Positions 1,116 to 44,418 are shown, counted from the first letter of the stretch. The stretch is DNA of 64,000 nucleotides from an uncultured Rhodospirillaceae bacterium (GCA_964393375.1 CAYMTM010000001.1:258-64257), one strand, 5' to 3'. Numbers and translations: made by a program. Notes: generated by a model from the sequence alone, not told the origin.

Positions 1116-1163
1116 GCGCCGGGCGCTCCGCCACAATCGGTCCGACAACGCGGGGGAGGGACT

Positions 1164-2774: not shown

Positions 2775-2775
2775 C

Positions 2776-3573: not shown

Positions 3574-3682
3574 TGCGGCGCCCGGGACCTGGACACCATG
3601 GACAGGTTTATATTGACCTTTATTAAGGGACCGTTAGCCATTCGCGCGTTAGAAAAAGCTCGGCGCAAATGGAGCGAGTTAG

Positions 3683-7306: not shown

Positions 7307-7376
7307 CCGCAGGGCGCCGGGACGCGGCCGAGTGCCGCCCAGCGGCGCCCGATCCGGGGCGGGAACGGAGACCCAC

Positions 7377-16732: not shown

Positions 16733-16759
16733 GTCTCCCTCCTTTTCGCTTCCCTTGTG

Positions 16760-17535
16760 CTAGGCGACAGGCCCGCCGGTGACGGGCAGGACCTGGCCGG
16801 TAATCCACGACGCGTAGGGCGAGGCCAGGAACATCACGGCGTACGCGATGTCCCGGGGCTCGCCCAGCCTACGCATGGCGACACGCTCGACCATCGCCTT
16901 CTGGCCTGCTTCGCCGTAGGACTGCCACTGGCGCTCGTAGTCCGGGCTCGTGCGCAAGAAGCCCGGCGCCACGGCGTTGACCGTGATGCCGAACGGTCCG
17001 AGCTCGTGGGCAAGCTGGCGCACCAGGCCGATCTGGCCGGCCTTGGCGGTGGCGTAGGACTGGATGCCGGTCAGGCTGACCGTCAAGCCGGCCCGGCTGG
17101 AGATGACGACGATCCGCCCGGCGGCGGCGCGCTTCATGCCCGGCACCACGGCGCGCACGGCGTAGAAAGCGCTGGTCAGATTGGCGTCCTGAATCGCTTC
17201 CCAGGCCTCGTCGCTGACCGTCTCGACCGGCTGCCTGGTCTGTCCGCGCACTCCCCCCGCGACATGGACCAGCACGTCGATCGCCCCCGTGGCCCGCTCC
17301 GCCTCGCGCGCAAAGACGTTGACATCGTCCGACTGGGCAAGGTCGACGACCCGCGTCTCGACGCCACCGCCGCGGCCCGGCCTCGTGCGCGCTTTCAGCT
17401 TTTCCAGTTCGTCCGCCAGCAGGTCGCAGGCCCACACCCGTGCGCCGCGTTCGGCGAAGGCTTCGACGATACCGCCGCCGATGCCCCGCGCGGCGCCCGT
17501 CACCGCGACCGTCTTGCCCTCGAACCCGATCTCCA
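16760..17535 (-). CDS. SDR-family short-chain dehydrogenase/reductase
   Basis: The Rossmann motif TVAVTGAARGIGGG lies ~10 aa after GTG 17535. That GTG sits 9 nt after the hyuB stop. The 311-aa ORF from 17695 would overlap hyuB by ~150 nt and its extension is Arg-rich junk. Catalytic YxxxK region and NAVAPG are present. Confidence 0.7.
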
Positions 17536-17544
17536 CGTCCGTCG

Positions 17545-19548: not shown

Positions 19549-19557
19549 GCTCGCCCC

Positions 19558-21600
19558 CTAGGCCGTCAGGCTCAACAGGATGTTACCGTGCGCGTCGACC
19601 GCGCCGTCGAAGCCGGCCGGGACGCAGATGGTGCTGTCCTCCTGCACGATCACGCAGGGGCTGGCGAAACGGTTGCCGTGGCCGAGATCGGCGCGGCGGT
19701 AGAGCGGCACGCTCTGGCGCTTGCCGTCCATCCAGACCTCGATCTGCTTGGCAGGTTTCGGTGCGTCGGTGCGTTTGTCCTGCAGCGGCAGCTTCGGTTG
19801 GGGCGAGGCGCCCACCACCACCATGCGCAGGCTGATGATCTGGATCGCATCCGCCGAGTCGCTGTGGCCGTAGATGCGGTCGTGCTCCTCGTGGAAGGCC
19901 TGGGCGATGCGCTCCACGTCGCCCGACACGATCCATTCCATCTTCAGAGGGACCTCGATCTCGAAGGACTGGCCGCGATAGCGCATGTCGGCCGACGGCA
20001 GCAGGGCGTGCGGTCCGGCGAACTTCTGCTCCTCGGCGATCCAGGCCTTGGCGCGGCGCGCCAGCGCGTCGAACTCGCGTTTCAGGCGCCCGGTCTCCGA
20101 CGGCTCCAGCATGTAGTAGGCAGTCGAGATGAAGTCGTTCTTGATGTCCGCGATCAACCCGCCGAGCGCCGACAGAACGCCGGGAGCGGTCGGGATCATC
20201 ACCTTGCGCATCCCAAGCTCGCGCGCGAGGAAGCAGCCGAGCATTGGCCCGGCGCCGCCGAAGGCAAGCAACGCGAAGTCGCGCGGGTCGATGCCCTGGC
20301 GCGATGCCAGTTTGCTGACCTCGCGGTACATGCCGGCCACCGCCATCTGGATGACCGCCTCGGCGGCCTGCTCGACGTTGCGCCCCAGCTTGCCGGCGAT
20401 CGTGCCGATCGCCTCGCGCGCCTTGGCGAGGTCGACCGTGACGGCGTCGTAGCCCAGGTTGCCGTGGCCGATGAAGCCGCACACCGCGAAGGCGTCGGTC
20501 ATGGTCGGCCGCGTGCCGCCGCGGCCGTAGCAGGCGGGTCCCGGGGTCGAGCCCGCGCTTTCCGGCCCGACGGTCAACGCGCCGAAGGCGTCGACCTTGG
20601 CGATCGAGCCGCCGCCATCACCGATCGAGGTGACGGACACGGTGGGAATGTAGACCGGAAACTCGCCGACGGTTTCGCCCGTGCCATAGCTGGGCGTGCC
20701 GTCGACAATGACCGCCACATCGGCCGACGTGCCGCCGATATCCAGGCTCATCACCCGGTCGAGCCCCGCCTGGCGCGCGGCGAAGCCGGCGCCGATCACG
20801 CCGGCCGCGGTGCCCGACAGCAACATCTGCAGGCAGGATTGCTTGCCAAGCTCGGCGGTCATCACGCCGCCGTTGGATTTCGTCACCATCGCCTCGGCCT
20901 TGACGCCGGCGTGTCGCAGGGCCGCCTGGAGCGAGGTCAGGTATTGCGTGATGCGCGGCTGGACGTATCCGTGGATCACCGCGGTGGTCGTGCGCTCGTA
21001 TTCGCGGATGATCGGCCACACGTCGCTGGAGCAGTAAACCGGCAGCTCCGGCGCCCATTCGCCGATCAGCCGCTTCACCTCGCGCTCGTGCGCGGGATTG
21101 CGGTAGGAATGCAGCAGGGCCACGACGATGCCCTCGGCACCAAGCGCGCGGGCGCGGTCGAGCGCCTTACGGACGCTGTCTTTGTCCAGCGGATCCTTGA
21201 CTGTGCCGTCCGCCAGCATGCGCTCGCGCACGGGGATCACGCGGTCGCGAGTCACCAGCGGCTGCGGGCGCGACGACATCAGGTGATAGGGGTCGGGCAT
21301 CTTCAGGCGCGCCAGTTCCAGCACATCGACGAAGTTCTCGGTGGTGAACAGGCAGAGCCTGATGCCCTTGCGCTGGATCACCGAGTTGATGCCGACCGTC
21401 GTGCCGTGCGTGAAATAGGACACATTGCCCGGCTGGATCGCGAACCGCCGCTCCAGTTCGCTCAGGCCCGTGATCACCTCGCGCCCGGGCTCGGCCGGGG
21501 TCGAGAGGACCTTGAGGGTCGACAGTTGCCCAGTGCTTTCGTCCAGCGCGCAGAAATCCGCGAACGTTCCACCGATATCGACGCCGATGCGATAACCCAT
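19558..21600 (-). CDS. hyuA: hydantoinase A / N-methylhydantoinase A (HyuA) family protein
   Basis: 680 aa. MGYRIGVDIGGTFADF (ASKHA-fold N-terminus) and the internal DIGGTSAD motif typical of HyuA. Confidence 0.85.
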   Translation of the reverse strand: MGYRIGVDIGGTFADFCALDESTGQLSTLKVLSTPAEPGREVITGLSELERRFAIQPGNVSYFTHGTTVGINSVIQRKGIRLCLFTTENFVDVLELARLKMPDPYHLMSSRPQPLVTRDRVIPVRERMLADGTVKDPLDKDSVRKALDRARALGAEGIVVALLHSYRNPAHEREVKRLIGEWAPELPVYCSSDVWPIIREYERTTTAVIHGYVQPRITQYLTSLQAALRHAGVKAEAMVTKSNGGVMTAELGKQSCLQMLLSGTAAGVIGAGFAARQAGLDRVMSLDIGGTSADVAVIVDGTPSYGTGETVGEFPVYIPTVSVTSIGDGGGSIAKVDAFGALTVGPESAGSTPGPACYGRGGTRPTMTDAFAVCGFIGHGNLGYDAVTVDLAKAREAIGTIAGKLGRNVEQAAEAVIQMAVAGMYREVSKLASRQGIDPRDFALLAFGGAGPMLGCFLARELGMRKVMIPTAPGVLSALGGLIADIKNDFISTAYYMLEPSETGRLKREFDALARRAKAWIAEEQKFAGPHALLPSADMRYRGQSFEIEVPLKMEWIVSGDVERIAQAFHEEHDRIYGHSDSADAIQIISLRMVVVGASPQPKLPLQDKRTDAPKPAKQIEVWMDGKRQSVPLYRRADLGHGNRFASPCVIVQEDSTICVPAGFDGAVDAHGNILLSLTA

Positions 21601-29211: not shown

Positions 29212-29796
29212 ATGCGCTGCCTCGTCGTCTATGCGCACCCTGTCGCGGAGAGCTACTGCGCGGCGCTGTGCGACCGCGCCGTTGGCGCTTTGAAGGAAGC
29301 AGGGCATGAGGTGCGGCTGGTCGACCTCTATGCCGAAGGCTTCGCGCCTGCGCTGTCGCGGGCCGAGCGCTTGACCTATCACACGCCTGGGGACAACGAG
29401 CAGACGGTCCGCGACCACATCGACCACATCAAGTGGGCCGAAGCCCTGATCTTCGTCTATCCGACCTGGTGGTACGGGCTGCCGGCGATGCTCAAGGGCT
29501 GGTTCGACCGTGTGTGGGTGCCTTTCGTCACCTTCACGCTGCCGAAGCAGGGACCGATCCGCGGCCTGATGGGCAATATCGTCCGGCTGGTGGTTATCAC
29601 GACCGCGGGTTCGCCCCGCCTGTGGTTAACGTTGATGGGCAATCCCGGACGGCATACGATCATGCGCGGGGTGCGTGCTTTGTGCCATCGCCGCTGCCGG
29701 CGCATATGGCTGGCGCATTACCGCATCGACCATTCGACCCCGGAAAGCCGCGCGGCGTTTCTCGACCGCGTCGCAAGGCGATTGAGGCGGCTCTAG
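29212..29796 (+). CDS. flavodoxin-like fold NAD(P)H:quinone oxidoreductase-type protein
   Basis: ATG 29212 (MRCLVVYAHPVAESYCAAL...). The motif YAHP...LIFVYPTWWYGLPAMLKGWFDRV is typical of the Flavodoxin_2 / NQO1-like family. Confidence 0.7.
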   Translation: MRCLVVYAHPVAESYCAALCDRAVGALKEAGHEVRLVDLYAEGFAPALSRAERLTYHTPGDNEQTVRDHIDHIKWAEALIFVYPTWWYGLPAMLKGWFDRVWVPFVTFTLPKQGPIRGLMGNIVRLVVITTAGSPRLWLTLMGNPGRHTIMRGVRALCHRRCRRIWLAHYRIDHSTPESRAAFLDRVARRLRRL

Positions 29797-30863
29797 CCGA
29801 GATCGAGACGCAGGAAATCGAAGAAGGCGTAGCTCTCCATCAGACGGTCGGGATCGATCTTGAGGAAACTTGCGGCCGGCAGCGGGGAAGAGGTGTCCCC
29901 CTGCGCTTTGATCGGCGGCGGGCCTTTGGCGAGTCCGCCCAGCAGATCATGGGGGCTGCTCTGCGAGGCGGCTTGGACATGCACTGGCCCGCAAGCAAAG
30001 GGCGCGTAACCATGCGCCTGGAACCGATGCCGGATCCAGTCACGGCTGTTGAGACGTTCCTCGCCCAGGTTCTGATACAGGAACAGGCCTACATCCGAGT
30101 CCTCGAGGACCAGCTTGGCGAGATGAATCAGGTAGCGCGCGGCGAACGGGTCCATCTCGCCCATCGCCGCATCGCAAACCACGACGTCCGCCTTGATGGG
30201 CGTCGATCGAAACAGCTCGGCGAAATGCCACCACGGGATCAGTGCGGCGCGTCCGGGAGGGAATGCGGCCGGCGGCGTGTCGGAGACGGCATAGTCCGTC
30301 AGATCGCCGCGCGCGATCCAGCGAAACAGGCGGTGCTGCCAAAGATACAACGCCTGGGTATTGTCGATCCCGACATAGCGATGGCCGCGCAGGAGACAAT
30401 AGGCGCCGAGGAACCCCGAGCCGGGTCCGACCTCGAGGACGCGCAGCCGGCGCCCGCGATGCGCGGCCGCGGCCTCGATCAGCCGGAGGATCGGCAGGGG
30501 CGGGAACAGGCACATCAGCGGCTGGACCGGCCGCCGGAAGAGTCTTGCCGTGAGCGTCTCGACCTCGCCCCGCAGAGTCAGGATGGCGTCCTGTTCGGCC
30601 CGCGACCATTCCAGGCGATTCAGCCAGTGGTCGCGGTCGAGGAGCTCGTACATGATGTCCGCGTAGCGGCGTAGCTCCGATTCCTGTGACACCTGCGTTG
30701 GGAAACCCACTTGCGCGAACGCAACGGGCGCGAACGACCGGATTGCGGGATAGGTCGCGCGTGCACGGGCGGCCGCCTGGCGGCGGTCGTACTCCTCGAT
30801 CGACAGGACGGGCAGCGCGGCATCGCTGGGCGGCGCAAGCGTTGCGAAAGGGTCCGGTGTCAT
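29793..30863 (-). CDS. class I SAM-dependent methyltransferase
   Basis: 357 aa from ATG 30863 (MTPDPFATL...). Motif I is LEVGPGSGFLGAY. The ATGA overlap with the upstream MT stop indicates coupling. The 729-aa ORF in the track fuses this gene with antisense junk. Confidence 0.7.
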   Translation of the reverse strand: MTPDPFATLAPPSDAALPVLSIEEYDRRQAAARARATYPAIRSFAPVAFAQVGFPTQVSQESELRRYADIMYELLDRDHWLNRLEWSRAEQDAILTLRGEVETLTARLFRRPVQPLMCLFPPLPILRLIEAAAAHRGRRLRVLEVGPGSGFLGAYCLLRGHRYVGIDNTQALYLWQHRLFRWIARGDLTDYAVSDTPPAAFPPGRAALIPWWHFAELFRSTPIKADVVVCDAAMGEMDPFAARYLIHLAKLVLEDSDVGLFLYQNLGEERLNSRDWIRHRFQAHGYAPFACGPVHVQAASQSSPHDLLGGLAKGPPPIKAQGDTSSPLPAASFLKIDPDRLMESYAFFDFLRLDLG

Positions 30864-31891
30864 CGCATGCCGACGGTTCTGGCCGCGCGGCCGAGCACGC
30901 GCCGCCACAGGGGACGGCGACGCGCAACGGGCGTCGGCATGGGGGTGGGAGGCGGCGGACGCCGTGCCGCGCCATCGAGCGGCGCAACGCCTTCCATCCG
31001 CTGGATCGGGGCGCGCAGCTTTTGCTCGCGCATCGGCTTGGCCAGGGCGACAAACATAAGATCGAACACGAAGCAAAGATGATGCCGCTCGGCCGGATAG
31101 GTGGCGTCGCCGGCGTCCCCGGGCGATAGGGATTCGAGGACCGCCCGTGTCTCGCCCGATAAGATGTTGGCGTGAAACCGGCGGACGACCTTCGTCATGA
31201 ACGTCTGCGTGTCTTCCATGTCGTGAAGCTGAATCGGCAGCCCGTCGAATTCGAACCGGCACGGCGGTCGCTCGGCTTGCAGCTTCTCGCGCACGAACAT
31301 GTTGTCGACATAGGAGAAGTCGAGCAGGCGATAGCCGTTGGCGCGGGCGAACTCGACGAACAGGTTGGGATTCGGCGTATAGAAACCGTGATTGGAAAAA
31401 GCAAAGGCCGGCACCACATGGAGCGCGACGCCGCCCGGCTTCAGCAGCGCATGCATGGTCTCGAAGACCCGCGCGATGTCGTAGACATGTTCTGCGGTGC
31501 CGAAGTCGGTAACGATGTCGAACTGGGGCAAGCCCTCGGCCGCGCGGTTGAGGTCGAGCTTGTAGGTGGCGCGATCGTCGTCCAGATCGGCGGAGCAGTA
31601 CTTCTCGACACCGAACAGCGCATAGTAGGCGGCCTGCCCGTCGCGTCGCGGCGTTTGCCCGTCGTACACCGCGGCGGCACCTACGGCGGCCGCGCCGCCC
31701 AGCGCCTGCTGCGCACGCGCCTCGAGATAGGCGCGCGGCACTTGGATGTCCTGCGGCCCAAGGTCGATCAGGCTGGCGCCGGCCGGCAGGAAACTCCGCC
31801 CATGCAGGCGGAACATCCACTCGGTATGCACGCATCCTATGGCCATGAACGCCGGTTCCGGCTGGTTGGCGCCGATTGACCGGCCTTGCAT
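30860..31891 (-). CDS. class I SAM-dependent methyltransferase (Methyltransf_11/12/23-like)
   Basis: Conserved DIVTDFGTAEHV / LLKPGGVALHVVP core. It has a low-complexity Pro/Arg tail. The start is uncertain (ATG 31891 or 31846); I chose 31891 to avoid overlap with the FkbM gene, which ends at 31948. Confidence 0.6.
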   Translation of the reverse strand: MQGRSIGANQPEPAFMAIGCVHTEWMFRLHGRSFLPAGASLIDLGPQDIQVPRAYLEARAQQALGGAAAVGAAAVYDGQTPRRDGQAAYYALFGVEKYCSADLDDDRATYKLDLNRAAEGLPQFDIVTDFGTAEHVYDIARVFETMHALLKPGGVALHVVPAFAFSNHGFYTPNPNLFVEFARANGYRLLDFSYVDNMFVREKLQAERPPCRFEFDGLPIQLHDMEDTQTFMTKVVRRFHANILSGETRAVLESLSPGDAGDATYPAERHHLCFVFDLMFVALAKPMREQKLRAPIQRMEGVAPLDGAARRPPPPTPMPTPVARRRPLWRRVLGRAARTVGMR

Positions 31892-31947
31892 ACAAGGCGG
31901 TCCAGCAGCGGTCAACGGCAGGTCGGTGGCGGGATGTCCGCGCAGGT

Positions 31948-33753
31948 TCAGAAGGTCGAGCTGCCGCGCACCGGCGCCGCATCGCCGCGGTAAAGAGCCG
32001 CGGCCGTATCGACGGCAGCCGTCAACGCGGCGGCTTGCGCCTGATCGCCGGCGGCGCGGAGGCGGGCGGCAAGCCATTGGCTGACTTCGAACGCGAATTC
32101 CACCTGCCCGAAGACTTCGGCGATCACTGCAAGCTTGATGGTTTGGTTCGTGTCAAGGGCCGTGAGCCCGCTGCTGCCGTCCGCGTCGACGGGATCACGC
32201 AAATACAGCGAATGCCCCTCGATCAGTTGGCCCCAGCTCGACACGAGTTGGCCCAGGCGGCCCACGAAGCCCGGCAAATGCTGGACGACGACCGGCGCCG
32301 CGGCACGCCCGACATAGTGATGGGCGACCAGGTCGAAGAAGGTGAATCCGGCGCGACGCAGGAAGGCGTCGATGTCGGAGAAGAACGGCCGCGCGAGATA
32401 GGATTCGACGAAGGCGGTCTCGGCCAGCACGCCCAGCATCCCGTCGAGGCATGGGCCGGCGGCTGCCAGAATGTCCAGCTCGGCACCTTGCACGTTGAGC
32501 TTGCAGAAATCGATCGCGGGGACGCCGGCGGATGCGGCCCATCGCGCGATCGAGGTGACCGGCATGTCCACGGTGCGCTCGGGCCGGAAAATCTCGCGCG
32601 CAAGCGACGTTTGGTGCGGGTTCTCGAACCGCCACCGGTCCGTGACCTTTGTGTTCTGATCGAGAAACGAACTGCCGCCGCTTGCCTTGTTGACGTGAAA
32701 GGGCAGCCTGCCGTCGTCCTTCCAAAGGCCGACCGGATAGTAGGCGCCCTGATAGCCGAGGTCGCGCAGGGTGCGGTTGAGGCGCTCGCATTCCGGCGGG
32801 TCCGGCTCGAAGCCGTGGAAGGAAAGGCGGTCCGCCGGCAGCTCGCGCCAGCGCGGATCGGCATGGGCGTCGCGCGCGCCTCCATCGAGCACGACAATCC
32901 GTTCGCCGCGCGGCAGCATTGCCAGGAGTCCCGGCGCAAGGCGCAGCCGCGGCTCCGGCTGGCGCGTTGGCGCGGCAGGGTTAGCCGTCCCGGCGCCGTC
33001 GGCCTCTCCAGCTCCGTCCAGATAGCTCGCCACTTGCCGCGCGATCTCGCCGATGTTGCGGCTGCCCGTCTGCTGGCGCGCCAGGTGGACCACGGCTGCC
33101 CATCCGCCCTCGTTGGAGGGATCGCGGCGCAAGAGGCCCTGGAAGACCCGCGCGGAGTCGGCGAAGCGGCCCAAATGGGCAAGCACCTGGCCCAGCGTGG
33201 CGCGCGCCGTGAGGTTGGCGGGATCGAGCGCGATCGCTTCCTCGAAGGCGGCAAGCGCGTCGTCGTAGCGCCCAAGCCGGGCATGGATGCTGCCGAGCTG
33301 AAACCAGGTATCGGCGCGGCGCGGCGCGAGCGCGCTTGCCACCCGGGCAAGGCGCTCGGCCTCGGCGGGATGGCCGGCATCGACGGCAGCGACGGCCGCC
33401 CCGAGAGCCGCGTCCGGATCGGAGACGCGCTCGATCAACGCCGAGAGTTCCGCCGCGCGCCCCGCCCTTACCAGCGATCCAAGCAGTTCCGTCTGCGCGA
33501 GCCGGCCCGCGCCGCGGCCAAGCCCATCCTGCAAGGCAGCGATTTTGAGCGGCAGTCCGCCGTGCACTTCCAGGAACCTGCCGAGGGCGGCCCAGGATTC
33601 ATCCGAGTCCGGCACGAGGCGCACGGCACGCGCATAGGCCCACTGTGCGTCGTGGAAACGACCGCGCCGGGCCAGGTAGGTCGCTTGCAGGCGCCCCAAC
33701 AGCCCAAACCGATGGCGGGCCGCGGAGACAAGCCGTTTCAGGTGCTGCTTCAT
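31948..33753 (-). CDS. TPR-repeat protein fused to an FkbM-family methyltransferase domain
   Basis: N-terminal TPR-like Ala/Leu repeats (AEAERLARVASALAPRRADTWFQLGSIHARLGRYDDALAAFEEAIALDP). The C-terminus has the FkbM signature (FHGFEPDP...IDFCKLNVQGAELDIL). The start at ATG 33753 is uncertain because there is no clear SD. Confidence 0.7.
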   Translation of the reverse strand: MKQHLKRLVSAARHRFGLLGRLQATYLARRGRFHDAQWAYARAVRLVPDSDESWAALGRFLEVHGGLPLKIAALQDGLGRGAGRLAQTELLGSLVRAGRAAELSALIERVSDPDAALGAAVAAVDAGHPAEAERLARVASALAPRRADTWFQLGSIHARLGRYDDALAAFEEAIALDPANLTARATLGQVLAHLGRFADSARVFQGLLRRDPSNEGGWAAVVHLARQQTGSRNIGEIARQVASYLDGAGEADGAGTANPAAPTRQPEPRLRLAPGLLAMLPRGERIVVLDGGARDAHADPRWRELPADRLSFHGFEPDPPECERLNRTLRDLGYQGAYYPVGLWKDDGRLPFHVNKASGGSSFLDQNTKVTDRWRFENPHQTSLAREIFRPERTVDMPVTSIARWAASAGVPAIDFCKLNVQGAELDILAAAGPCLDGMLGVLAETAFVESYLARPFFSDIDAFLRRAGFTFFDLVAHHYVGRAAAPVVVQHLPGFVGRLGQLVSSWGQLIEGHSLYLRDPVDADGSSGLTALDTNQTIKLAVIAEVFGQVEFAFEVSQWLAARLRAAGDQAQAAALTAAVDTAAALYRGDAAPVRGSSTF

Positions 33754-34083
33754 CCGAGCGATCGAACTTGCGGAGGGGCGAAGGGCCGCAGAGTAGCGGG
33801 TTTCTGTTCGCGCGAGTAGGCCCCTTCGCCACGCGACCGGAGGCCCGGTGCACCCGGTTGCCCGCATGGCGCAGCCAGCGCGGCGCGAGCCGTGCGGGCC
33901 AAGCGTGACAGTCGGCATCGCGATAGATATATAGGGCCGTCGCTGAGCGTCCATGACGGCGAAGGGCGAAACCGGAGTAGGGGCTAGGACAACCAGTCCG
34001 AAGACTGCTTTGGCGCAATCTGGCTACTCCTGAAGACGTGACAGATAAAGAGGGGCGCGTGGTCCAATGCGCCAGGAGCGATT

Positions 34084-35403
34084 ATGCGCGTTGCCGTGTT
34101 TGGTTTGGGTTATGTAGGTGTCGTTTCGGCTGCTTGCTTGGCCGAAGGAGGGCATGACGTCATCGGGGTCGACGTCAACCCCGTCAAGGTCAAGATGGTC
34201 TTGGACGGAACGTCACCAATCCTCGAAGATCGCATCGAGGACCTTGTGAAGGCGGCGGTCGCCGCCGGGAAGTTGCGCGCCACGGGCAGCGCCGAAGAGG
34301 CGGTCGCCGGCTCCGACATTTCGCTGATCTCCGCGGGGACTCCCTCGGGCCCCACCGGCGCTCCGATGCTCGACGCCGTCGACGCCTGCGTCGAAGCGAT
34401 CGGGCGGGCCATTCGCAGCGGCAATCCGAACAACCACACGGTCATTGTCCGATCGACAATTCCGCCGGGGACAACGGAGAAGCGCTTGCGGCCGATACTC
34501 GAGAAAGCCAGCGGGCGCACGATCGGCAACGGCCTCGACCTTTGCTTCAATCCGGAATTCCTGCGCGAGGGCTCGTCCGTTCACGATTTTCATCATCCGC
34601 CGCAGACGATCATCGGCTCGTTCACGGCCGAGGGACACGAGGCCGTCGAGCGGCTCTATGCCGGGATCGAGGCGCCCGTCGTCCGCACCAACTGCACGCT
34701 CGCAGAGTCAGTCAAGTATCTTTGCAACGCGTTTCACGCGGTGAAGATCGGCTTTGCCAACGAAGCCGGCGCTGTCCTGAAAGCGATGGGCGTCGATGCC
34801 CGAGACGCGCTGTCGGCGCTATGCAACGACACCGTGCTGAACATTTCGCCCGCCTATCTTCGCCCCGGCTTCGCGTTCGGCGGTTCCTGTCTACCGAAAG
34901 ACCTGAAGGGATTTCTTTACGCTGCCCAGCAGCACAATGTTCGCCTGCCATTTCTGGGACATTTGCTGGAAAGCAATCAGGCGCATATCGACCGCGCGTT
35001 CGACATGATAGCGCGGCTCGGCAGGCGCAAGGTGGCCCTGTTCGGCCTGGCGTTCAAGCCCGGGACGGACGACTTGCGGGAAAGCCCGCTCGTGACACTG
35101 GCAGAACGGTTGATCGGCAAGGGGTACGAACTCGCGATCTACGACCGCTACGTGGATGCAAGCCGCCTGCTGGGGAAGAACCGTGAGTTCATCGATCGCG
35201 AAATTCCGCATTTCGAGCGGCTTCTTGCCGCGAGTGCGGAAGAAGCGATAGCGCGATCCGAGACGATCGTGGTCGGTCATGCCGATCGGGCAGCACAGGC
35301 GGTGATCGCATCGGGCCATGGCGGCAGGCCGGTGATCGACCTGCAGGGGTTGCGCGCGCTGCAGACAGCGGAGGGCATGCGCTACGAGGGCATCTGCTGG
35401 TGA
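34084..35403 (+). CDS. algD: GDP-mannose 6-dehydrogenase (AlgD-type nucleotide-sugar dehydrogenase)
   Basis: 439 aa with SD AGGAG. The alignment with Pseudomonas AlgD (sequence recalled from memory) is nearly colinear: MRVAVFGLGYVGVVSAACL / NPEFLREGSSVHDF / YLRPGFAFGGSCLPKD / FKPGTDDLRESPLVTLAERLIGKGYELAIYDRYV. This is clearly not the UDP-glucose type, which is represented separately at 55924. Confidence 0.85.
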   Translation: MRVAVFGLGYVGVVSAACLAEGGHDVIGVDVNPVKVKMVLDGTSPILEDRIEDLVKAAVAAGKLRATGSAEEAVAGSDISLISAGTPSGPTGAPMLDAVDACVEAIGRAIRSGNPNNHTVIVRSTIPPGTTEKRLRPILEKASGRTIGNGLDLCFNPEFLREGSSVHDFHHPPQTIIGSFTAEGHEAVERLYAGIEAPVVRTNCTLAESVKYLCNAFHAVKIGFANEAGAVLKAMGVDARDALSALCNDTVLNISPAYLRPGFAFGGSCLPKDLKGFLYAAQQHNVRLPFLGHLLESNQAHIDRAFDMIARLGRRKVALFGLAFKPGTDDLRESPLVTLAERLIGKGYELAIYDRYVDASRLLGKNREFIDREIPHFERLLAASAEEAIARSETIVVGHADRAAQAVIASGHGGRPVIDLQGLRALQTAEGMRYEGICW

Positions 35404-36638
35404 GCCGCCGCCGGCTTCTGTTCGTCTCGCCCCAGTTCCTGTTCCCGACGGATGCCGGCGGCAAGATCCGCACCGCGAACATCCTGCGGGGAATGAAGGG
35501 CCGGGAATTCGACATCACCCTCGTTTCGCCCGCTGTCGCTGGCGCAGCCGAGGCCTGGCGGAACGAAATCGCCAAGGTCGCCGACCACTACGCCACATGG
35601 CCGGACCCGACGAAGGGGTTGAGTGGCAAACTGCGGCGCATCTTGAGTGTGCTGCACCGATTGCCGGTAACCGTCGCCGTCGACGTGTCGCGCGCAGGCT
35701 GCGCATTGGTCGGGCGCGCACTTGCGGACCGGTTCGACGTGGTCGTCTTCGACTACGTCCATTCCGCGATATTCAAGCCGGCGCGGTGCCCGACGCCTTC
35801 GGTGTGCCTGACGCACAACGTGGAGGCCGAGATACTCCTGCGGCATGCCAACGTGGAGCGCCGCGCCGCCATGCGACTTCTCTGGCGAAGTCAGCACGCA
35901 AAGATGCAGCGTTTCGAGCGCAAGGCGTTGGCCGGCTTCGACGTGGTGGTCGCAGTTTCCGAGCGGGACGCGCGGATGTTCCGCGATGAGTACGGGCTCT
36001 CGAACGTTGCCTCGATCCCGACTGGGGTAGATTTGGACTATTTCGGCTACGCCGAGCCTTCTGGAACCGTCGCGGATCGACCGCTGGTCGTATTCACAGG
36101 TTCGATGGATTCGCGCGCCAATGTAAACGGTGTCGAATGGTTCATCGATGCAATCTGGCCGCGGGTCGCCAAGGCACATCCTGGCGCGCGCTGCGTCATT
36201 GTCGGGAAGAATCCACCGGAGATGCTGGTTCTGCGGGCGCGGGCGGGGGGGCACGACATTACGTTCACCGGCTTCGTGGACGATGTCCGTCCCTACATGC
36301 GCGGGGCCGATGTTGCGGTTATCCCTCTTCTGGTGGGCGGCGGGACGCGCATCAAGGCATACGAGGCCATGGCGATGGGCGTCCCGATCGTGTCGACCGC
36401 ATTGGGGGTGGAGGGGCTGCCGGTGCAGGACGGCGAGCATCTCCTGGTCTCGGACGATGCCGTGGGGTTCGGCGACCGGGTAGTGGAACTCATAACGAAG
36501 CCTGAACGGCGCTTGGCGATCGCGGCGGCTGCCCGAAGGTTGGTCGAAGAGAATTTTGGGGCAGCGGGCGTCGCCGAGCGGTTCGAGGGCATTTGTCTGG
36601 ATGCAATAGAGAATCATGCAGCAACAGCGCACGTATAA
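35400..36638 (+). CDS. glycosyltransferase family 4 (GT-B, Glycos_transf_1)
   Basis: GTGA overlap with the algD stop. The C-terminal GT4 motifs are present (VGKNPPE...ADVAVIPLLVGGGTRIKAYEAMAMGVPIVST..EG). Confidence 0.8.
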   Translation: MSRRRLLFVSPQFLFPTDAGGKIRTANILRGMKGREFDITLVSPAVAGAAEAWRNEIAKVADHYATWPDPTKGLSGKLRRILSVLHRLPVTVAVDVSRAGCALVGRALADRFDVVVFDYVHSAIFKPARCPTPSVCLTHNVEAEILLRHANVERRAAMRLLWRSQHAKMQRFERKALAGFDVVVAVSERDARMFRDEYGLSNVASIPTGVDLDYFGYAEPSGTVADRPLVVFTGSMDSRANVNGVEWFIDAIWPRVAKAHPGARCVIVGKNPPEMLVLRARAGGHDITFTGFVDDVRPYMRGADVAVIPLLVGGGTRIKAYEAMAMGVPIVSTALGVEGLPVQDGEHLLVSDDAVGFGDRVVELITKPERRLAIAAAARRLVEENFGAAGVAERFEGICLDAIENHAATAHV

Positions 36639-36780: not shown

Positions 36781-39700
36781 CTACCCGAATACGAACTGTT
36801 GTGCGGCGAGTTGGGCGATGGTGGTGTTCTGGAGGAGGATGGAATTGTTGGCGTCGAAGGCGATGGTGACGCCGGCGGCGCTCTGGGACATGTGGGCCTG
36901 GAGTTGGGCGAAGGTGGAGATGCCGTAGAGGTTGGCGTCGTTGAGCAGGATGGTGTCGCCCTGGGATGGGGTGAAGTCGGCGATGGTGTCGCGGCCGCCC
37001 GAGAACTCCCAGACGAACTGGTCGGCGCCCGCCCCGCCGGTCAAGGTGTCGTTGCCCATGCCGCCGGTGAGGAAGTCGTTGCCGTTGCCGCCCTGCAGGA
37101 TGTCGTTGCCCGAGTTGCCGTAGAGGTAGTCGTTGCCGTCGTCGCCCTGGACCAGGTCGTCGCCGGCGCCGCCGAACAAGAGGTCGATGCCGCCGCCGCC
37201 GGCGATGGTGTTGTTGGCGGTGCCGCCGTAGACCAGCTCGTTCTTGGCGCTGCCGGTGTAGTTGGCGCCGGCGCCGGTCTGGACCAGGATGTCGCCGCTG
37301 TCGAGGTAGCTGCCGTCGGCGAGCTTGGGCGTGACGTTCCACAGCGGGTTGTCCTCGAACGACCCCTTGGCGAGGTTGAAGGTCTGGGCGATGACGTAGC
37401 CGTAGGCCTCGACCGCCTGGGCCGAGCCGGTGGCGCTGACCAGCGTGGCCATGGCGGCGCGGGCCTGGGCGGCGTAGCCGCCGGACCAGTCGGGATAGCC
37501 CTCCATGGTCATGGTGGCGGAGGCGGTGGCGGGGTCGTAGCCGGAGGCCTGGTAGGCCTCGGCCCAGGTGTCGAGATAGTTGCCCTGGGCGTCGCGGATG
37601 GCGAGGTTATAGGTCGGGCCGGCGGCGGGGTTGTAGCCGAGCTCGCCGCTGGTGAACCGCCCGGCGGAGAAGTTCTCCATCCAGGCCAAGAGCGTGCCGG
37701 CGTCGGCGTAGCCGCGGCTGTAGGCCTCGCCGAGCACGGTGATCAGGTAGTCCTGCTGCCAGGGGGCCATGATCGTGCCGCTGCCGTCGCCGTAGTAGGA
37801 ATCGATCCAGCCCTCGAGCTGGCCGGCGGCGTCGTTCCTGCCGCCGGTGACGTAGGTCTGGACCAGGTAGGCGAGGTTGGATTTGACCAGCCCGTCGAAG
37901 TAGGCCTTCATCGGATCGCCGTTGGGGGTGATGTAGGCGGCGTCCATCAGGTCGCGCAGGGTCCAGGCCAGCGCGCGCAGCTGCTCGGCGCCCGGCGACA
38001 TCACCCCGCCGCCCTCGGTGTAGTAGGGGTCGCGCATGGCGATCTCGGTGGCGGCCTGGGCCTGCAGCTCGTCGAGATAGTAGTGGCTGCCGGTGAAGAG
38101 ATAGGGCAGGTAGCTGAGCGCCGGCGGGTGGGCCAGGTCCGGCGTCCAGCCGGCCAGGCTGGCGCCGCTGGGATAGTCCGGGATGCTGCCGGCGCCGGTC
38201 CCGCGCGAGTCGATCCACAGGTTGGGGTGCTGGTCGACGCGTACCGGGTTAGAGGTCGCCTCGTCGGTGTAGTGCCAGGGCACCGCCCCGGCGGCGTCGG
38301 CCTGGGCCAGCATGACGTCGAGCGCGCGGGCGTCCTGGGTCAACAGATAGCGCGCATACCATTCCGGGATCGGGCCGATATCCGGCCGGCCGCCGGTCTG
38401 CGGCATGTACTGCAGCACGAAGGCCGCGCCCAGCGGGCCGGTGTCGGCCGCCGCCAGCGCGGCGTAGTCGCCCGCCACCGCGGCCGCGTCGACCCCCTGG
38501 GCGGTGTCGAGCGCCGGCACCGCGCCGGTCTTGATCAGGTAGTCGACGTCGCGCTGCACGTTGATCGAAGGCTCGCCCTTCAGCCACGCCTCGACGTGCC
38601 AGGTCGAATTGGCGTGGTGGAACATGTTGGCTTCGCTGTAGACCACCGTGGCGCCCTGCTTGACCGCCACGTCGTAGGTGAAGGAGTTGATGCCGGGCGT
38701 GAAGGTCGAATCGTTGGCCAGGATCACGTCGGTCATGACGTTGCCGTCGGCCGTCACGCGGATGTCGAAGATCGCCTTCAGGCCCGTCGTCAGCGTGGTC
38801 TGGACGCGGAACTCCGAGGCCTGGCTGCCGCTCATCCAGGTCTCGACCGTGCCGTTGGCGATCGAGCTCTGCAGCAGCTGGGCGACGTTGACCGACTTCA
38901 GGGTGGTGGTGCCGTTGGCGTTGTGCAGGTTGACGTCGAGCGTCACGTTGAGGCCCTTGGCGATCGCGTCCTGCGCGGTCAGGACGGCGCCGCCCGCGGC
39001 CGCCGCGTGCTTCAGCATCACGTCGACCTCGCCGTTGCCGGCCAGCGCCGGCGCCTGCAGGGTCAGGATCGCGTGGCGCACCGAGCCGTCGGCGTTGAGC
39101 GCCTTGACGTCGATCTGCACCGGCACCGAAACGCCGTTGATCGCCGCCACCAGCCCGGTCCCCGGCATCAGGTCGCCGGCTTTGAACACCTGCCCGAACG
39201 AGACGATCGCCGCCGCCTGGGCCGAAGCCGAGGTGTTCTGCAGGGTCATGCCCACCAGATCGCCCGCCGCGCTCGCCGCCGGCACGTCCGGCACCGCGAT
39301 CAGCCCCGTCGTGCTGCCCCCCGTGGAGCCGCCCGTGGAGCCGCCGGTGGAGCCGCCCGTGGAGCCGCCCGTGGAGCCGCCCGTGGACCCGCCGGTGGTG
39401 GTCCCGCCATTGGTCAGGTCGATCACCCGGTCGGCGAACCTGGCGTACTCCACCGAAACCAGGTGGTCGCTGCCCTCGGCCAGCCCGGCGCCGGCGGTGC
39501 CGGTGATCTGCCACGACCCGTCGGCCAGCTTCGCCACCGTGTAGTCGGCGTAGTTGCCCTGGAACACCGCCGTGTCGCTGCCCGTGCCGCCGTCCAGCCA
39601 GTCGTTGCCGCCCCCGCCTTTCAGCGTGTCGTCGCCCGCCATCCCCAGCAGCGTGTCGCCCCCCGACCCGCCGGTGATCGTGTCGTGCCAGCCCGCCCCC

Positions 39701-42700
39701 TGCAGCGCCGAAATCCCCGTCAGCTTGGTGGCGGAGAAGTCCAGCACGCTGCCTTCCCACGACCCCACCACCGTGACGTTGGCATAGCCGCCCGCCGAGA
39801 CCTCCTCGATCCCGCTCGCGGGCGCGAAGTTGCGCAACTGGATCGTCGTGCCGGCCTGCGTCGCCAGGATGATGTCGTAGCCCGCCGTCCCGGTGTCGAC
39901 GATCGTGTCGATGCCGTCGGCGGTACCCCCCACCAGGTAGGTGTCGCTGCCCTGGCCGCCGTCCATCGTGTCGTCGCCGCCGCCGCCGCGGATCACGTCG
40001 TTGCCGGCCCCGCCCCAGATCGTGTCGTGCCAGCCCCCGCCGTTGATCGCCACGATCCCCGTCAAGGTCGTGTTGCGGAAGTCCAGCACGCTGCCGCTCC
40101 ACCAGCCCTGGATCGTCACGTTGGCGTAGCCGTTGGCGGTGATCTCCTCGATCCCGCTCGCGCTCTTGAGCCCGATCGCCGTGCCGGCCTGCGTCGCCGC
40201 GATCCGGTCGAAGCCGGAGGTGCCCGTATCGGCGATCGTGTCGTAGCCGTCCCCGGTGCCCCCCACCAGGTATATGTCGCTGCCCTGGCCCCCGTTCAGC
40301 GTGTCGTCGCCGCCCGCCCCGCGGATCACGTCGTTGCCCGCGGTCCCGTTCAGCACCTCGCCCGAAGCCGTGCCCACGATCGTCGGCGTGTACGTCACCG
40401 TCCCCGCCGAAACCGGGTCCACCACCACGCTCAAGCTTGCCGTCGCCGTCGCCGTCGCGCCCCCGTTCGACTCCGTCGACGTCGCCCTGACCGTCAGCAC
40501 GAAATCCGCGTCCGAGTTCGCCGGCGGCGTGATCTTCAGCCCCGACAACTGCGAAGCCGTCAGCAGCCACGTCCCGTTGCCCTGGTTCGTCCCCGCCGAA
40601 AGCGTCGCCCCCGCCGGAACCCCGGAAATCGTCACCGACAGGCTCTCCGAACCGTCCAGGTCCGTCAGCGCCGCCGAAATGTTCAACCCAATCGCCGTGT
40701 TCACCAGGCCCTGCGCCGGCGAAACCGACAGCGTCGGCATCGACGCCGTCGTGTCGACCGCCGGCAGCGTCACCGGCAGGATCGCCGTGGTCGTCGCCGT
40801 AGATCCGCCGGTCGCCTCCGTCGACTTCGCCGTCACCGTCAGGCTGAAGCTGCTGGAGTTCGCCGGGGGCGTGATGGTCAGGCCGGAAAGCTGGGCCGGC
40901 GTCAGCAGCCACGTGCCGCCGCCCTGGTTGGTCCCCGCCGACAGCGTCGCCCCGGTCGGCACTCCGGCGATCGTGATGGACAGTGACTCCGACCCGTCCG
41001 TGTCGGTCAATGCCGCCGCTATGTTGAGCGGCACCGCCCCGGAGCCCGATCCCGACGCCGGCGACAGGGTCAGGCTCGGCGCGTCGGCCACCGCCGCGAC
41101 CGTCACCGGCAGGCTTGCCGTCGTCGTCGCCTTGGCCCCGCCGTTCGATTCGGTGGACGTGGCCGTCACCGTCAGCGCGAAGTCTGCGTCCGAATTGGCC
41201 TTCGGCGTGATCGTCAGGCCGGAAAGCTGCGCCGGGGTCAGCAGCCACGTGCCGCTGCCCAGGTTGGTGCCGGCCGACAACGTGGCGCCGGCCGGAACGC
41301 CGCTGATCGCGATCGACAGCGTCTCCGACCCGTCGAGATCCGTCAGCGCCGCCGCGATGTTCAGCGCGATCGGCTTGTCCTCCTGGCCAGAGGCGGCCGA
41401 AACGCTGAGCGTCGGCTTCGACGCGGTGATGTCGCCCGACAATCCGCCCGAGGCGAGCTGGCTGACCGCGATCGTGGTGTCGGCGAAGCTGATGAAACTG
41501 ATACCCTGCAGCAGGTCGGTACCGTCGCCGCCCACGTTGTCGCGCACCGTCACGTTGCCGTTGGCCGCAAGGGTCACGGAATAGTTCGCCGCGGCGCCCC
41601 TGAAGACGGCCGTATCGACGCCGCCGCCGCCGATCATCGTGTCGTTGCCGCCGCCGCCGGAAAGGGTATCGTTGCCGGCATTGCCCCTCAGCGTGTTGGC
41701 CAGCGCGTTGCCGGTCAGCGATGCGCCCGTGGTAAGACCGATATTGCCCCACTCGACGTTCGCCGCCAGCGTATAGGCCTGGATGAACGTGCCGACGCCG
41801 TCGTTTCCGCCGCCGGCCGCCTCGATCACCACATCGTTGGCGCTGTAGATGCCGTAGATGTCGTCCCCGGCGCCGCCGATCAGCGTGTCGCCGCCGCCCA
41901 TGCCGAGCAGCACGTTGTTGCCCGCGTTGCCGACCAGCGTCTCGCCGCCACCAGCCGTGCCCCATCCGGTCAGATTGCCGGTGCCCCCGAGTTCGAGGAT
42001 CTCCACGTTCGCCGCGATGGTCGTGTTATCGACGAACGTAATCATGCGGTCGGCCGTGCCCTGGCCCGCCGCCTCGATCACCACGTCGCCGGATTGGTCG
42101 ATATAGTAGGTGTCGTTGCCGGCACCTCCCGACATCGCGTCGGCGCCGGCGCCGCCGTTCAGGACGTTGTCGCCGCTGTTCCCGTAGAGCGTATCGTTGC
42201 CGGCGCTGCCGGCGCCCGCCAGGTTGCCGCTGCCGGTCAGCCGCAGCACCTCGACATTGGCGGAAAGCGTGTAGCTGACGCTGGAATAGATCGTGTCGAT
42301 GCCTTCGCCGGCGTTCTCGGCCACCACGTCGCCGGACGAATCGACGAAATAAGTATCGTCCCCGGCCCCGCCGATCATCGTGTCGTTGCCGGCGCCGCCC
42401 GTCAGCGTATCGTTGCCGGCATTGCCCCTCAGCGTGTTGGCCAGCGCGTTGCCGGTCAGCGATGCGCCCGTGGTAAGACCGATATTGCCCCACTCGACGT
42501 TCGCCGCCAGCGTATAGGCCTGGATGAACGTGCCGACGCCGTCGTTTCCGCCGCCGGCCGCCTCGATCACCACATCGTTGGCGCTGTAGATGCCGTAGAT
42601 GTCGTCCCCGGCGCCGCCGATCAGCGTGTCGCCGCCGCCCATGCCGAGCAGCACGTTGTTGCCCGCGTTGCCGATCAGCGTCTCGCCGCCGCCGGCCGTG

Positions 42701-44418
42701 CCCCAGGCAAGATTGTTGCCGGTGCCGCCGAGCTCGAGGGCTTCCACGTTCGCAGTTAGGTAGTTGTTGAACGCGAAGCCGATGATCTTGTCGGCCGTTC
42801 CCCCGCCGGCCTGCTCGATCACCACGTCGCCGGAATCGTCCACATAGTACGTGTCGTTCCCGGCGCCGCCGATCATCGTGTCGGCGCCCTCGCCGCCGTC
42901 CAAGATATTGTCGCCGCTATTGCCCACGAGGACATTGACGCCGGCATTGCCGGTGCCGGTCAGGTTGCCGCTGCCCGTCAGCTCGAGCCGCTCGATGTCG
43001 GGCGACAGCGTATAGCTGACGCTCGCGCGAACCGTGTCGTAGCCCGCGCCCGGCTGCTCGGCCACGATGTCGCCGGCCGAATCCACGACATACACGTCGT
43101 CGCCGGCACCGCCGGCCATCGAATCGCTGCCGGCGCCGCCGTCCAGCGTGTCGTTGCCGGCATTGCCATAGAGCGTGTTGTTAAGCGAATTGCCGGTCAG
43201 CGTGGCTCCGGCGGTAAGGCCGATAGAACCGAGCTCGACATTGGCCGCTAGAGTGTAAGACTGCAGATAGGTCGCAACCCAATCTGTACCGCCCCCCGCC
43301 GCCTCGGTGACGACATCGCTGGCGTCATCGACCAGGTAAATGTCGTTGCCGGCGCCGCCGATCATTACGTCCGCGCCGCCCATGCCGAGCAGCACGTTGT
43401 TACCCGCGTTGCCGATCAGCGTATCGTTGCCGGCACCGCCCCAGGCGGTCAGGTTGCCGCTCCCGCCGAGTTCGAGAATCTCGACGTTCGCCGCGATCGT
43501 CGTATTGTCGAGCGTGGTTACGATCCGGTCGGCCGTCCCCTGGCCCGACGCCTCGACGACAACGTCGCCCGCGTTGTCGACGTAATAGGTGTCGTTACCG
43601 AGACCGCCGACCATCAGGTCCGCCCCGGCGCGGCCGTCAAGGATATTGTTGCCGCTGTTGCCGTAAAGCGTGTCGTTGCCCGCGGTCCCGGTCGCCATCA
43701 GATCACCGGTCCCCGTGAGTTGCAGCACTTCCACATTGGCAGCCAGCGAGTAGTCGACGCTGGCCAGTACCCGATCAAGCCCATCACCCGGATTCTCTAC
43801 CACCACATCGCCGGTTGAGTCGACGACATAGGTATCATCGCCGGCCCCGCCTGCGGTTGTGTCATTTCCGAGGCCGCCGTCCAGCGTGTCGTTGCCGGCA
43901 TTGCCGTAAAGCGTGTTGGCGAGCCCATTGCCATCGAGGCGAGCGCCGGTGGCAAGCCCGATGGAGCCCAGCTCGACATTGGCCGCCAATGCATAACTCT
44001 GCAGATAGGATGCCACCCAGTCGGTGCCGCCCCCCGCCGCCTCGGTGATGAGATCGCCCGAGTTATCCACAACATAAATGTCGTTGCCGGCTCCGCCGAT
44101 CATGACGTCTGCGCCGGCTCCGCCGATCAATACATTGTTGCCGGCATTGCCAATAAGCGTGTCGGTGCCGGCGCTACCCCAGGCAGTGCCGTTGCCGGAG
44201 CCGCCAAGCTCGAGGATCTCGACGTTCGCCGCGATCGTTGTGTTGGCAACGGTCGACACCATGCGGTCCGCCGTACCCTGGCCCGCCAACTCGACCACCA
44301 CGTCGCCCGCGTCGTCGACGATGTAGGTATCGTTCCCGGCGCCGCCGGCCAGATAGTCCGGGCCCGCCCCGCCATCCAGGGTATCGGTGCCCGTCGTGCC
44401 GAATAAGGTGGTGTTCAA
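36781..44418 (-). CDS. 2545-aa secreted RTX (hemolysin-type calcium-binding repeat) protein with Ig-like repeats and a large central putative polysaccharide-lyase/glycanase-like domain; probable type I secretion substrate
   Basis: TTG start with SD GAGGAT 6 nt upstream.
- aa 1-~1000: dense GGxGxDxUx nonapeptide blocks organised as four or more tandem ~247-aa modules.
- aa ~1000-1400: three ~105-aa repeats (..[48 protein letters not shown]..).
- Then two ~110-aa RTX-containing modules.
- (GGST)7 linker.
- ~680-aa Trp/Tyr-rich non-repeat domain.
- C-terminal RTX block, ending ..QQFVFG. Confidence 0.85.
39325..39410. repeat. tandem 12-nt repeat (ggagccgcccgt)x7 encoding a (GGST)n linker inside the RTX gene
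   Basis: The repeat is seen directly in sequence 39325-39410. It translates on the minus strand as [12 protein letters not shown]... Confidence 0.8.
41640..41970. repeat. internal direct repeat copy A (~270-bp perfect core) of a ~741-bp module in the RTX gene
   Basis: Sequence 41667-41937 is identical to 42408-42678 (tatcgttgccggcattgcccctcagcgtgttggccagcgcgttgccggtcagcgatgcgcccgtggtaagaccg...). Diverged copies of the same module occur near 43140 and 43880. Confidence 0.85.
42380..42710. repeat. internal direct repeat copy B of the same RTX module
   Basis: Offset of 741 bp (247 codons) from copy A. It is perfect over ~270 bp. Confidence 0.85.

Follow-up and report, generated by a model that had tools for sequence, protein, structure and literature searches.

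A possible mosaic glycan-decoration island with an AlgD-type GDP-mannose 6-dehydrogenase in an uncultured Rhodospirillaceae bacterium

We analyzed a 64-kb (64,000-nucleotide) stretch of DNA from an uncultured Rhodospirillaceae bacterium (GCA_964393375.1, CAYMTM010000001.1:258-64257), called the window throughout, and focused on a five-gene island at 29793-36638 and on the giant RTX protein gene convergent with it. The island encodes three methyltransferases on one strand and, divergently, an AlgD-type GDP-mannose 6-dehydrogenase (GMD) followed by a family 4 glycosyltransferase (GT4). An earlier note had read these genes as an exopolysaccharide (EPS) or capsule pathway for a methylated, mannuronate-containing polymer. 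Our preferred reading, held at about even chances, is that they form a mosaic glycan-decoration island with a swappable sugar cassette rather than a stand-alone polysaccharide pathway. The genes of the island are the following (aa, amino acids; positions are those of the window).

29793-30863 (-): methyltransferase B, 356 aa, of a family without a Pfam model
30860-31891 (-): methyltransferase A, 343 aa, its stop overlapping the start of methyltransferase B by 4 bp
31948-33753 (-): TPR-repeat and FkbM-family methyltransferase (TPR-FkbM), 601 aa, with Pfam TPR_16/TPR_2 and Methyltransf_21
33754-34083 (no strand): divergent intergenic region between the methyltransferase operon and GMD-GT4, part of the replaced cassette interval
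34084-35403 (+): AlgD-type GDP-mannose 6-dehydrogenase (GMD), 439 aa, with three UDPG_MGDP_dh domains
35400-36638 (+): GT4 glycosyltransferase, 412 aa, with Pfam Glyco_trans_1_4 and Glyco_transf_4

The five genes were resolved by codon-position GC, by Pfam and NCBIfam scans, and by metagenome gene calls on four contigs with an identical locus, and all the genes described in the earlier note were confirmed where it had placed them. Because the G+C content of the window is about 67%, long spurious open reading frames (ORFs) are common in it. A 729-aa ORF at 29793-31982 was rejected as a single gene and is a composite of two genes in two frames: the codon-position GC profile switches frame near 30860, inside this ORF, and the metagenome gene calls split it into genes of 343 aa and 356 aa with a 4-bp overlap. 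An ATG at 30818 is a possible true start of methyltransferase B, and the ortholog of methyltransferase A in a related contig (L012, described below) begins at the residues MAIGC, which correspond to position 31846 in the window. The methyltransferases had been described as preceding GMD; they do adjoin it, but they lie on the opposite strand and are transcribed divergently, and the two sets do not share an operon.

A replaced cassette beside a separate methyltransferase module

In a close relative, represented by contig L012, the GMD-GT4 slot is a replaced cassette. Positions 1488-15453 of L012 are colinear with window 33758-19804 at 80.6% nucleotide identity over 14 kb, and the homology ends at window 33758. 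On the far side of the slot, L012 2-89 matches the 3' end of the RTX gene (window 36874-36787) at 91%. Between these anchors the relative carries a single 392-aa stp3-like GT4 (L012 123-1301), in the same orientation as in the window, and no GMD; this GT4 is just 28% identical to the window GT4, over the C-terminal domain. The three methyltransferases occupy the same site in L012 and L013 at 75-79% identity, without GMD, and the L012 orthologs of TPR-FkbM and methyltransferase A are each 75% identical to their window counterparts. Since the close relative has a different single GT4 in this position, the slot probably sets a strain-variable sugar, and because a lone GT4 persists beside the methyltransferase trio there, one locus with a variable sugar step is favored over pure coincidence.

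Judged by its distribution, the trio is a separate module, independent of the GMD-GT4 pair. The methyltransferase B screen comprised 85 loci (80 from a metagenome scan and five others, three of which hold a methyltransferase B homolog), and neither a GMD ortholog nor a GT4 of the window type was found in any of the 85. Conservation of the locus as a unit, which the earlier pathway reading called for, is thus seen neither in these loci nor in L012, which keeps the trio and the RTX 3' end with another GT4. The whole trio recurs in L014, where the genes are 47-54% identical to those of the window and have as neighbors a Wzm/Wzt-type ABC transporter and genes for a carbamoyltransferase and a sulfotransferase-like protein. 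Methyltransferase A adjoins homologs of methyltransferase B, or lies within a few kb of them, in L014, L019, L020, L021, and L023, and an FkbM domain accompanies methyltransferase B in L014, L040, L050, and L053. Other loci with homologs of the methyltransferases carry genes for UDP-galactopyranose mutase, ABC2 transporters, MBOAT, acyltransferase 3, TylF, carbamoyl-, sulfo-, and acyltransferases, sulfate activation, and GDSL lipases. Because the homologs occupy glycan loci, the trio plausibly consists of sugar O-methyltransferases, and the sugar O-methylation proposed for them earlier is plausible in this genomic context.

The methyltransferases have the Rossmann-like methyltransferase fold and the glycine-rich motif I for binding S-adenosylmethionine (SAM), as class I SAM methyltransferases do. 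TPR-FkbM scores 43.5 bits against PF05050 (Methyltransf_21; cut-off 22.7) and 42.4 bits against TIGR01444 (cut-off 37.7). The matches of methyltransferase A are marginal, with 28.4 bits to Pfam Methyltransf_23 (cut-off 27) and 21.5 bits to Methyltransf_11 (cut-off 21.2). The family of methyltransferase B comprises 85 clusters (90% identity) among 5.8 billion proteins, and its alignment has 13 invariant positions, including Y25, D69, E73, R127, G148, and W212, making it a candidate for a new family definition.

The G+C content at third codon positions (GC3) is 0.76-0.80 in the genes of the island and 0.84-0.91 in most neighboring genes, and this lower GC3 hints at a foreign origin of the island. 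Both flanks encode unrelated metabolism: upstream lie genes for a creatininase, an ABC importer, an amidohydrolase, an FAD oxidase, and a flavodoxin-like reductase, and downstream lie genes for a phasin, ZnuABC, CobW, and others. The GMD-GT4 cassette is flanked by no mobile-element-type repeats other than short matches at chance level. An AGGAG is present 5' of the GMD ATG. The divergent intergenic region (33754-34083) contains no consensus sigma-70 promoter, and scans of this region and of the convergent one for promoters and terminators gave no signal over background.

The GMD and its coupled GT4

Sequence comparisons identify the product of 34084-35403 as a true AlgD-type GDP-mannose 6-dehydrogenase. 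The protein has the three-domain architecture PF03721, PF00984, and PF03720, and its best match among all solved structures is the GDP-mannose 6-dehydrogenase of P. aeruginosa (1mfz; 419 bits, E=2e-124). Residues 1-439 align with 1-436 of 1mfz, end to end and including the C-terminal EGICW, which bears out the colinearity with Pseudomonas AlgD described in the earlier note; the global identity to AlgD is 45%. Among the other solved structures, the best UDP-glucose dehydrogenase gives 219 bits and a UDP-ManNAcA dehydrogenase gives 142 bits. The window protein keeps the catalytic Cys268 and also Lys210, Asn214, Thr124, Glu157, Glu161, Asp272, and Lys324. Five residues are specific to GMDs, namely His217, Ala263, Arg122, Cys213, and Leu126 (Freas et al., 2016; PMC4794789), and the first four of these are kept in the window protein, with Leu126 replaced by Pro. 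Leu126 is the least conserved of the five, being Leu in 35 of 45 GMDs.

A second nucleotide-sugar dehydrogenase in the window served as an internal control and has a GalU-like neighbor.

55924-57246 (-): UDP-glucose 6-dehydrogenase, internal control, 640 bits to the solved UDP-glucose dehydrogenase 4a7p
57288-58163 (-): GalU-like nucleotidyltransferase, adjoining the UDP-glucose dehydrogenase

The control, whose listed ORF of 630 aa has a spurious extension at the N-terminus, matches AlgD with just 202 bits and is 34% identical to the GMD. In a small neighbor-joining tree, the GMD, its homologs, and AlgD form one clade with a bootstrap of 100 (50 replicates), and this clade excludes both the UDP-glucose dehydrogenase of the window and a UDP-ManNAc-dehydrogenase-like paralog. 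Bit scores, residues, and the tree all favor AlgD over the UDP-glucose and UDP-ManNAc dehydrogenases, the comparison that the earlier note had proposed as a check. Because the orthology holds, GDP-mannuronate is the likely precursor made by this enzyme.

The earlier statement that such an enzyme is rare outside alginate producers is contradicted by its distribution. A word-index search with the GMD gave at least 8000 matches, and the best 120 clusters (90% identity) among the matches listed are all full length and 60-87% identical; their named sources are Burkholderiales-type metagenome-assembled genomes (for example Piscinibacter, Rhizobacter, Albitalea, and Rhodocyclaceae). An exhaustive search of 50%-identity cluster representatives found at least 150 GMD clusters from several phyla, at 300-480 bits and mostly end to end. 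Cultured bacteria have full-length homologs too, 39-56% identical and located on plasmids or chromids, namely Rhodovastum, Streptomyces, Shinella, Rhizobium, Deinococcus, Chondrinema, and roseobacters. A scan of genome contigs with the GMD protein returned one locus (L007), and conservation was judged from metagenome contigs and plasmid records. Our literature searches found no relevant work tying GMD to exosortase, PEP-CTERM to mannuronic acid, or GDP-mannuronic acid to methyltransferases.

The GT4 begins with a GTG within the stop codon of GMD, which confirms at 35400 the GTGA overlap noted earlier. In five other loci (L005, L007, L008, L009, and L011), an ortholog of the GT4 (52-68% identity) lies directly 3' of a GMD (63-79%), and the same 4-bp overlap is present in all four of those with gene calls (L005, L008, L009, and L011). 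Three of these loci, L005, L009, and L011, are exosortase-type EPS loci, and the layout of L007 is the same as that of L009; L008 is a short contig on which the neighbors seen are of the glycosyltransferase and sugar-oxidoreductase kinds only. Taken together, L005, L009, and L011 have genes for exosortase EpsH/EpsI, for exporters like Wza and Wzc and a flippase, for several glycosyltransferases and a polysaccharide deacetylase, for FemAB-like acyltransferases, and for asparagine synthase and acyl-CoA ligase/ACP; in L005 and L009 the exosortase adjoins the orthologous GMD-GT4 pair. The methyltransferase trio is in none of the five. The nearest relatives of the GMD and the GT4, in the same order, are thus housed in EPS loci of the exosortase (XrtA/PEP-CTERM) type, in Burkholderiales and some Alphaproteobacteria. 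Those loci mostly have an exosortase, Wza/Wzc-type exporters, a flippase, several glycosyltransferases, or exosortase-linked genes for asparagine synthase and acyl ligase, whereas the window lacks these and the loci lack the trio. Pfam scans covered nearly all large ORFs of the window, and among these scanned ORFs no exosortase EpsH/XrtA or associated export gene was found.

As a separate observation on one of these loci, the L005 GMD-GT4 pair (GMD 70% identical) lies between two blocks. The first (1-9924) is like a sphingolipid or acyl-amino-acid pathway, with an acyl ligase, an ACP, a class I/II aminotransferase, an epimerase/reductase, and a CDP-alcohol phosphatidyltransferase, and the second (15567-19055) holds exosortase EpsH/EpsI and asparagine synthase.

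The window GT4 scores 182.8 bits against TIGR03087 (stp1), under the curated cut-off of 316.65, and together with four of its orthologs it spans 169-200 bits in NCBIfam. Because these scores fall below the 317-bit cut-off, the sequences place the GMD-linked GT4s as a sister subfamily of the TIGR03087 (stp1) PEP-CTERM/XrtA glycosyltransferases, not as members. The best solved relatives of the GT4 are PimB' and PimA, both dependent on GDP-mannose, which is weakly consistent with the use of a GDP-sugar donor.

GMD-like genes adjoin a GT4 gene more widely. In Streptomyces, Rhodovastum, Shinella, and Rhizobium records, a GMD-like gene (45-56% identical) is next to a GT4 gene, with overlap in three of the four, although these GT4s are not orthologs of the window GT4. 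In Streptomyces, Shinella, and Rhizobium the overlapping genes are carried on plasmids, within loci of the Wzx/Wzy type. The Streptomyces locus also encodes a priming sugar transferase and Wzz-family proteins.

We also compared the pair with the alginate operon of P. aeruginosa and Azotobacter. Both have an AlgD-like GMD of the same length with the same three domains, but the partner is a GT4 in the window and the GT2 Alg8 in the alginate operon. Alg8 is an inverting GT2 that makes beta-1,4-mannuronan, whereas GT4 is a retaining family, for which an alpha linkage is expected. No alg8, alg44, algK, algE, algG, algX, algL, algIJF, or algA was found among the scanned ORFs of the window. The earlier remark that alg8 and alg44 are missing beside GMD is therefore correct, and an alginate-like system was rejected.

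The convergent RTX protein

The gene that faces GMD-GT4 encodes, as the earlier note had described, a giant RTX protein with a candidate polysaccharide-cleaving domain, which we find to be PL26-like in its fold.

36781-44418 (-): giant RTX protein, convergent with GMD-GT4, 2545 aa, HemolysinCabind
37234-39306 (-): PcRGLX/PL26-like two-domain module inside the RTX protein, aa 1705-2395, a beta-sandwich and an (alpha/alpha)6 barrel

The N-terminal part of the protein, about 960 aa, is made up of repeated modules that contain RTX sequences. It is followed by three cadherin-like repeats of 112 aa each, two more repeated modules, a (GGST)n linker, a non-RTX domain of 690 aa, and a C-terminal RTX block. 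HemolysinCabind matches in 17 stretches, with the C-terminal block at aa 2407-2470, and the GGxGxD nonapeptide repeats of type I secreted RTX proteins are present. The protein is a probable type I secretion substrate. No type I secretion gene (ABC transporter, membrane-fusion protein, or TolC) was found among the scanned ORFs of the window. At the DNA level, the (GGST)n linker corresponds to a 12-bp tandem array (39316-39398) and the cadherin-like modules to a 336-bp repeat in 2.7 copies (40435-41367); repeats of this kind probably account for the breaks of related contigs within the gene or at its end.

The globular domain (aa 1705-2395) has a PL26-like architecture, an N-terminal beta domain followed by an (alpha/alpha)6 barrel, and so resembles the exo-rhamnogalacturonan lyase PcRGLX. 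Its identity to PcRGLX is just 8-11%, and the match to PF19501 (PcRGLX N-terminal) reaches 18.4 bits, below the cut-off of 22.1. We found 149 homologs of the domain; PF19501 is present in many, and some are joined to modules of the beta-helix and RTX kinds. A glycan-cleaving role is plausible, and the PL26-like domain, often fused to RTX repeats, is a family lacking a proper model; with methyltransferase B, the analysis thus flags two such families. A reading of the RTX protein as an AlgE-type epimerase was rejected, because no segment gave a Beta_helix or NosD-type match; the fold of the globular domain is a beta-sandwich with an alpha barrel, not a right-handed beta-helix. The rhizobial RTX-type EPS glycanases ExsH and PlyA/PlyB have GH16 or other folds, unlike the window domain.

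Two homologs of the domain have informative neighbors. The homolog in L017 has as neighbors the ABC transporter of a type I secretion system, a membrane-fusion protein, and a GH16 protein, and the one in L018 lies beside Wzy, a priming transferase, and MBOAT. L018 also encodes (19061-20239) a 49% identical homolog of the stp3-like GT4 that fills the slot in the relative, which hints that the PL26-like domain and the stp3-like GT4 travel together and that the RTX protein is linked to the neighboring glycosyltransferase slot. The tie of the RTX enzyme to a mannuronate polymer, as proposed earlier, is unproven, because the relative without GMD keeps at least the RTX 3' end in the same place.

A comparable arrangement is found on plasmids of Shinella (L101 10539-12500) and Rhizobium (L102 10775-12572), where alginate-lyase or heparinase II/III family genes and a cellulase-family gene come directly after a GMD and an overlapping GT4. 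These sets parallel the GMD-GT4 pair and the PL26-like RTX enzyme of the window, although the plasmid lyases are of the alginate-lyase or heparinase II/III family and the window enzyme is PL26-like and linked to RTX repeats. A flippase, an O-antigen-ligase/Wzy-family protein, and GumC are further products of the two plasmid loci, which look like uncharacterised clusters for mannuronate-containing heteropolysaccharides in culturable bacteria.

Decoration island and rival readings

The complete EPS or capsule pathway of the earlier note does not emerge from the gene content. The GT4 is the only glycosyltransferase of the island, and no priming transferase, polymerase, flippase, ABC exporter, or Wza/Wzc gene was found next to the island or among the scanned ORFs of the window. 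In the mosaic glycan-decoration reading, two modules would act on a glycan for which other parts of the genome encode backbone synthesis and export. Module 1, the conserved operon of TPR-FkbM and methyltransferases A and B, would O-methylate sugars of a surface glycan, possibly at terminal residues by analogy with ABC-transporter-dependent O-polysaccharides. Module 2, divergent from module 1, would be the swappable cassette, which here consists of GMD and the translationally coupled GT4. GMD would oxidise GDP-mannose to GDP-mannuronate, and the GT4 would most likely add one alpha-linked mannuronosyl residue to the acceptor glycan, the alpha linkage being most likely because the GT4 family is retaining. 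For the PL26-like domain of the RTX protein, the extracellular substrate may be this glycan or a related one, a link that is only suggested.

The components come from known families, and their combination, although unusual, looks like ordinary glycan-locus mosaicism. If the decoration reading is true, GDP-mannuronate is routinely used outside alginate, and retaining GT4s add single alpha-mannuronate residues to heteropolysaccharides, a use on which the literature searched gave no papers. The cassette swap between close relatives is a natural experiment on surface-glycan diversity, with a variable sugar step beside unchanging methyltransferases. The island is a lead for annotation and glycobiology and does not overturn current understanding.

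The closest characterised analogues of this logic appear to be the accessory glycosyltransferase/methyltransferase operons of ABC-transporter-dependent O-polysaccharides, represented by E. coli WbdD (PMC3482155) and by pa5455-pa5459 of the P. aeruginosa common polysaccharide antigen (PMC3560663). Unlike these systems, the window has no adjacent Wzm/Wzt or backbone glycosyltransferases. The kinase and the coiled-coil ruler domain of WbdD are absent from the window methyltransferases, where TPR-FkbM has a TPR domain instead, and the structural similarity of the island methyltransferases to WbdD is no better than that to generic methyltransferases such as UbiG.

The mycobacterial methylmannose polysaccharide cluster (ManT, MeT1, MeT3, and MmpH; PMC9883506) may be compared with the island more loosely. 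It shares the compact logic of one glycosyltransferase, several methyltransferases, an (alpha/alpha)6-barrel cleaving enzyme, and no export genes (PMC9883506). The systems differ in that the window sugar is a uronic acid and the window cleaving enzyme is housed in a probably secreted RTX protein, so that it would act outside the cell. Sequence searches of the PDB gave no significant match of the methyltransferases or the GT4 to solved methylmannose-polysaccharide enzymes, and homology to these enzymes was rejected.

Several points weigh against the decoration reading. The decoration role is argued from the absence of acceptor-glycan genes within 64 kb; the two modules could be mere neighbors with unrelated targets, and the GT4 could be processive and make a homopolymer by itself. 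The identity of methyltransferase A is marginal, its Pfam scores lying near the cut-offs, and it is the genomic context that suggests sugars as methylation targets rather than lipids, proteins, or small molecules. Furthermore, the contig of the relative stops 122 bp past its GT4, and the RTX gene is seen there only as a 3' end.

The possibility of mere neighbors is unlikely, though it deserves serious weight. The GMD-GT4 pair would in this case feed an EPS encoded elsewhere, for example of the exosortase type, the trio would modify another glycan, for example an O-antigen, and the adjacency of the two modules, as well as that of the RTX gene, would be accidental. Consistent with this, the two modules were not found together in the other loci examined; the other homes of GMD-GT4 are EPS loci with their own machinery, and those of the methyltransferase families are ABC-transporter-type loci. 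However, unrelated single-GT4 cassettes lie divergent from the trio, in the same orientation, in both the organism and its relative, as is more usual where a single functional locus varies in its sugar step, and the lower GC3 is common to the whole island.

A self-contained EPS or capsule pathway, in which the GT4 polymerises GDP-mannuronate, the trio methylates the polymer, and the RTX enzyme remodels it outside the cell, is improbable. It draws on the genuine GMD, on the uronate-lyase-like domain encoded next door, on the GMD-GT4-lyase sets of Rhizobiaceae, and on the precedent that a single glycosyltransferase can elongate a homopolymer, as does ManT of methylmannose polysaccharide (PMC9883506). 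Against it stand the missing priming, polymerase, flippase, and export genes and the retention of the trio and the RTX 3' end without GMD in the relative. In addition, in the other contexts examined GMD-GT4 is always among glycan-synthesis genes, mostly in large multi-glycosyltransferase EPS loci, and the combination seen in the window is unique among the 85 loci of the methyltransferase B screen.

Still less probable, and put forward with little confidence, is that the island is a self-sufficient polymethylated alpha-mannuronan system, a uronic-acid counterpart of the mycobacterial methylmannose polysaccharide. The cleaving enzyme would then generate primers or remodel the polymer, and the slot swap in the relative would switch the sugar of the polymer. 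We know of no polymethylated alpha-mannuronan.

Protein glycosylation, with the GT4 and the methyltransferases decorating the RTX protein or another secreted protein docked by the TPR domain, seems scarcely credible: it would fit the fusion of TPR to the FkbM methyltransferase, the RTX gene kept beside the island in the relative, and the Ser/Thr-rich linkers of the RTX protein, but homologs of methyltransferases B and A occur in classical polysaccharide loci without RTX genes, there is no oligosaccharyltransferase or known O-glycosylation signature, and RTX proteins leave the cytoplasm unfolded via type I secretion.

Elsewhere in the window, a pair of giant glycosyltransferase genes of unusual architecture lies back to back about 20 kb upstream of the island. 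The first (3683-7306, +) encodes a 1207-aa protein with a galectin-like N-terminus and GT2 and GT25 domains, and the second (7332-9989, +) encodes an 885-aa protein with a GT32-like DXD domain and BNR_4; a DUF6270 gene (2776-3573, -) adjoins the pair. Near the other end of the window, the gene at 60857-63433 (+) encodes an 858-aa protein that combines TPR repeats with Glucodextran_B-like and caspase (Peptidase_C14) domains.

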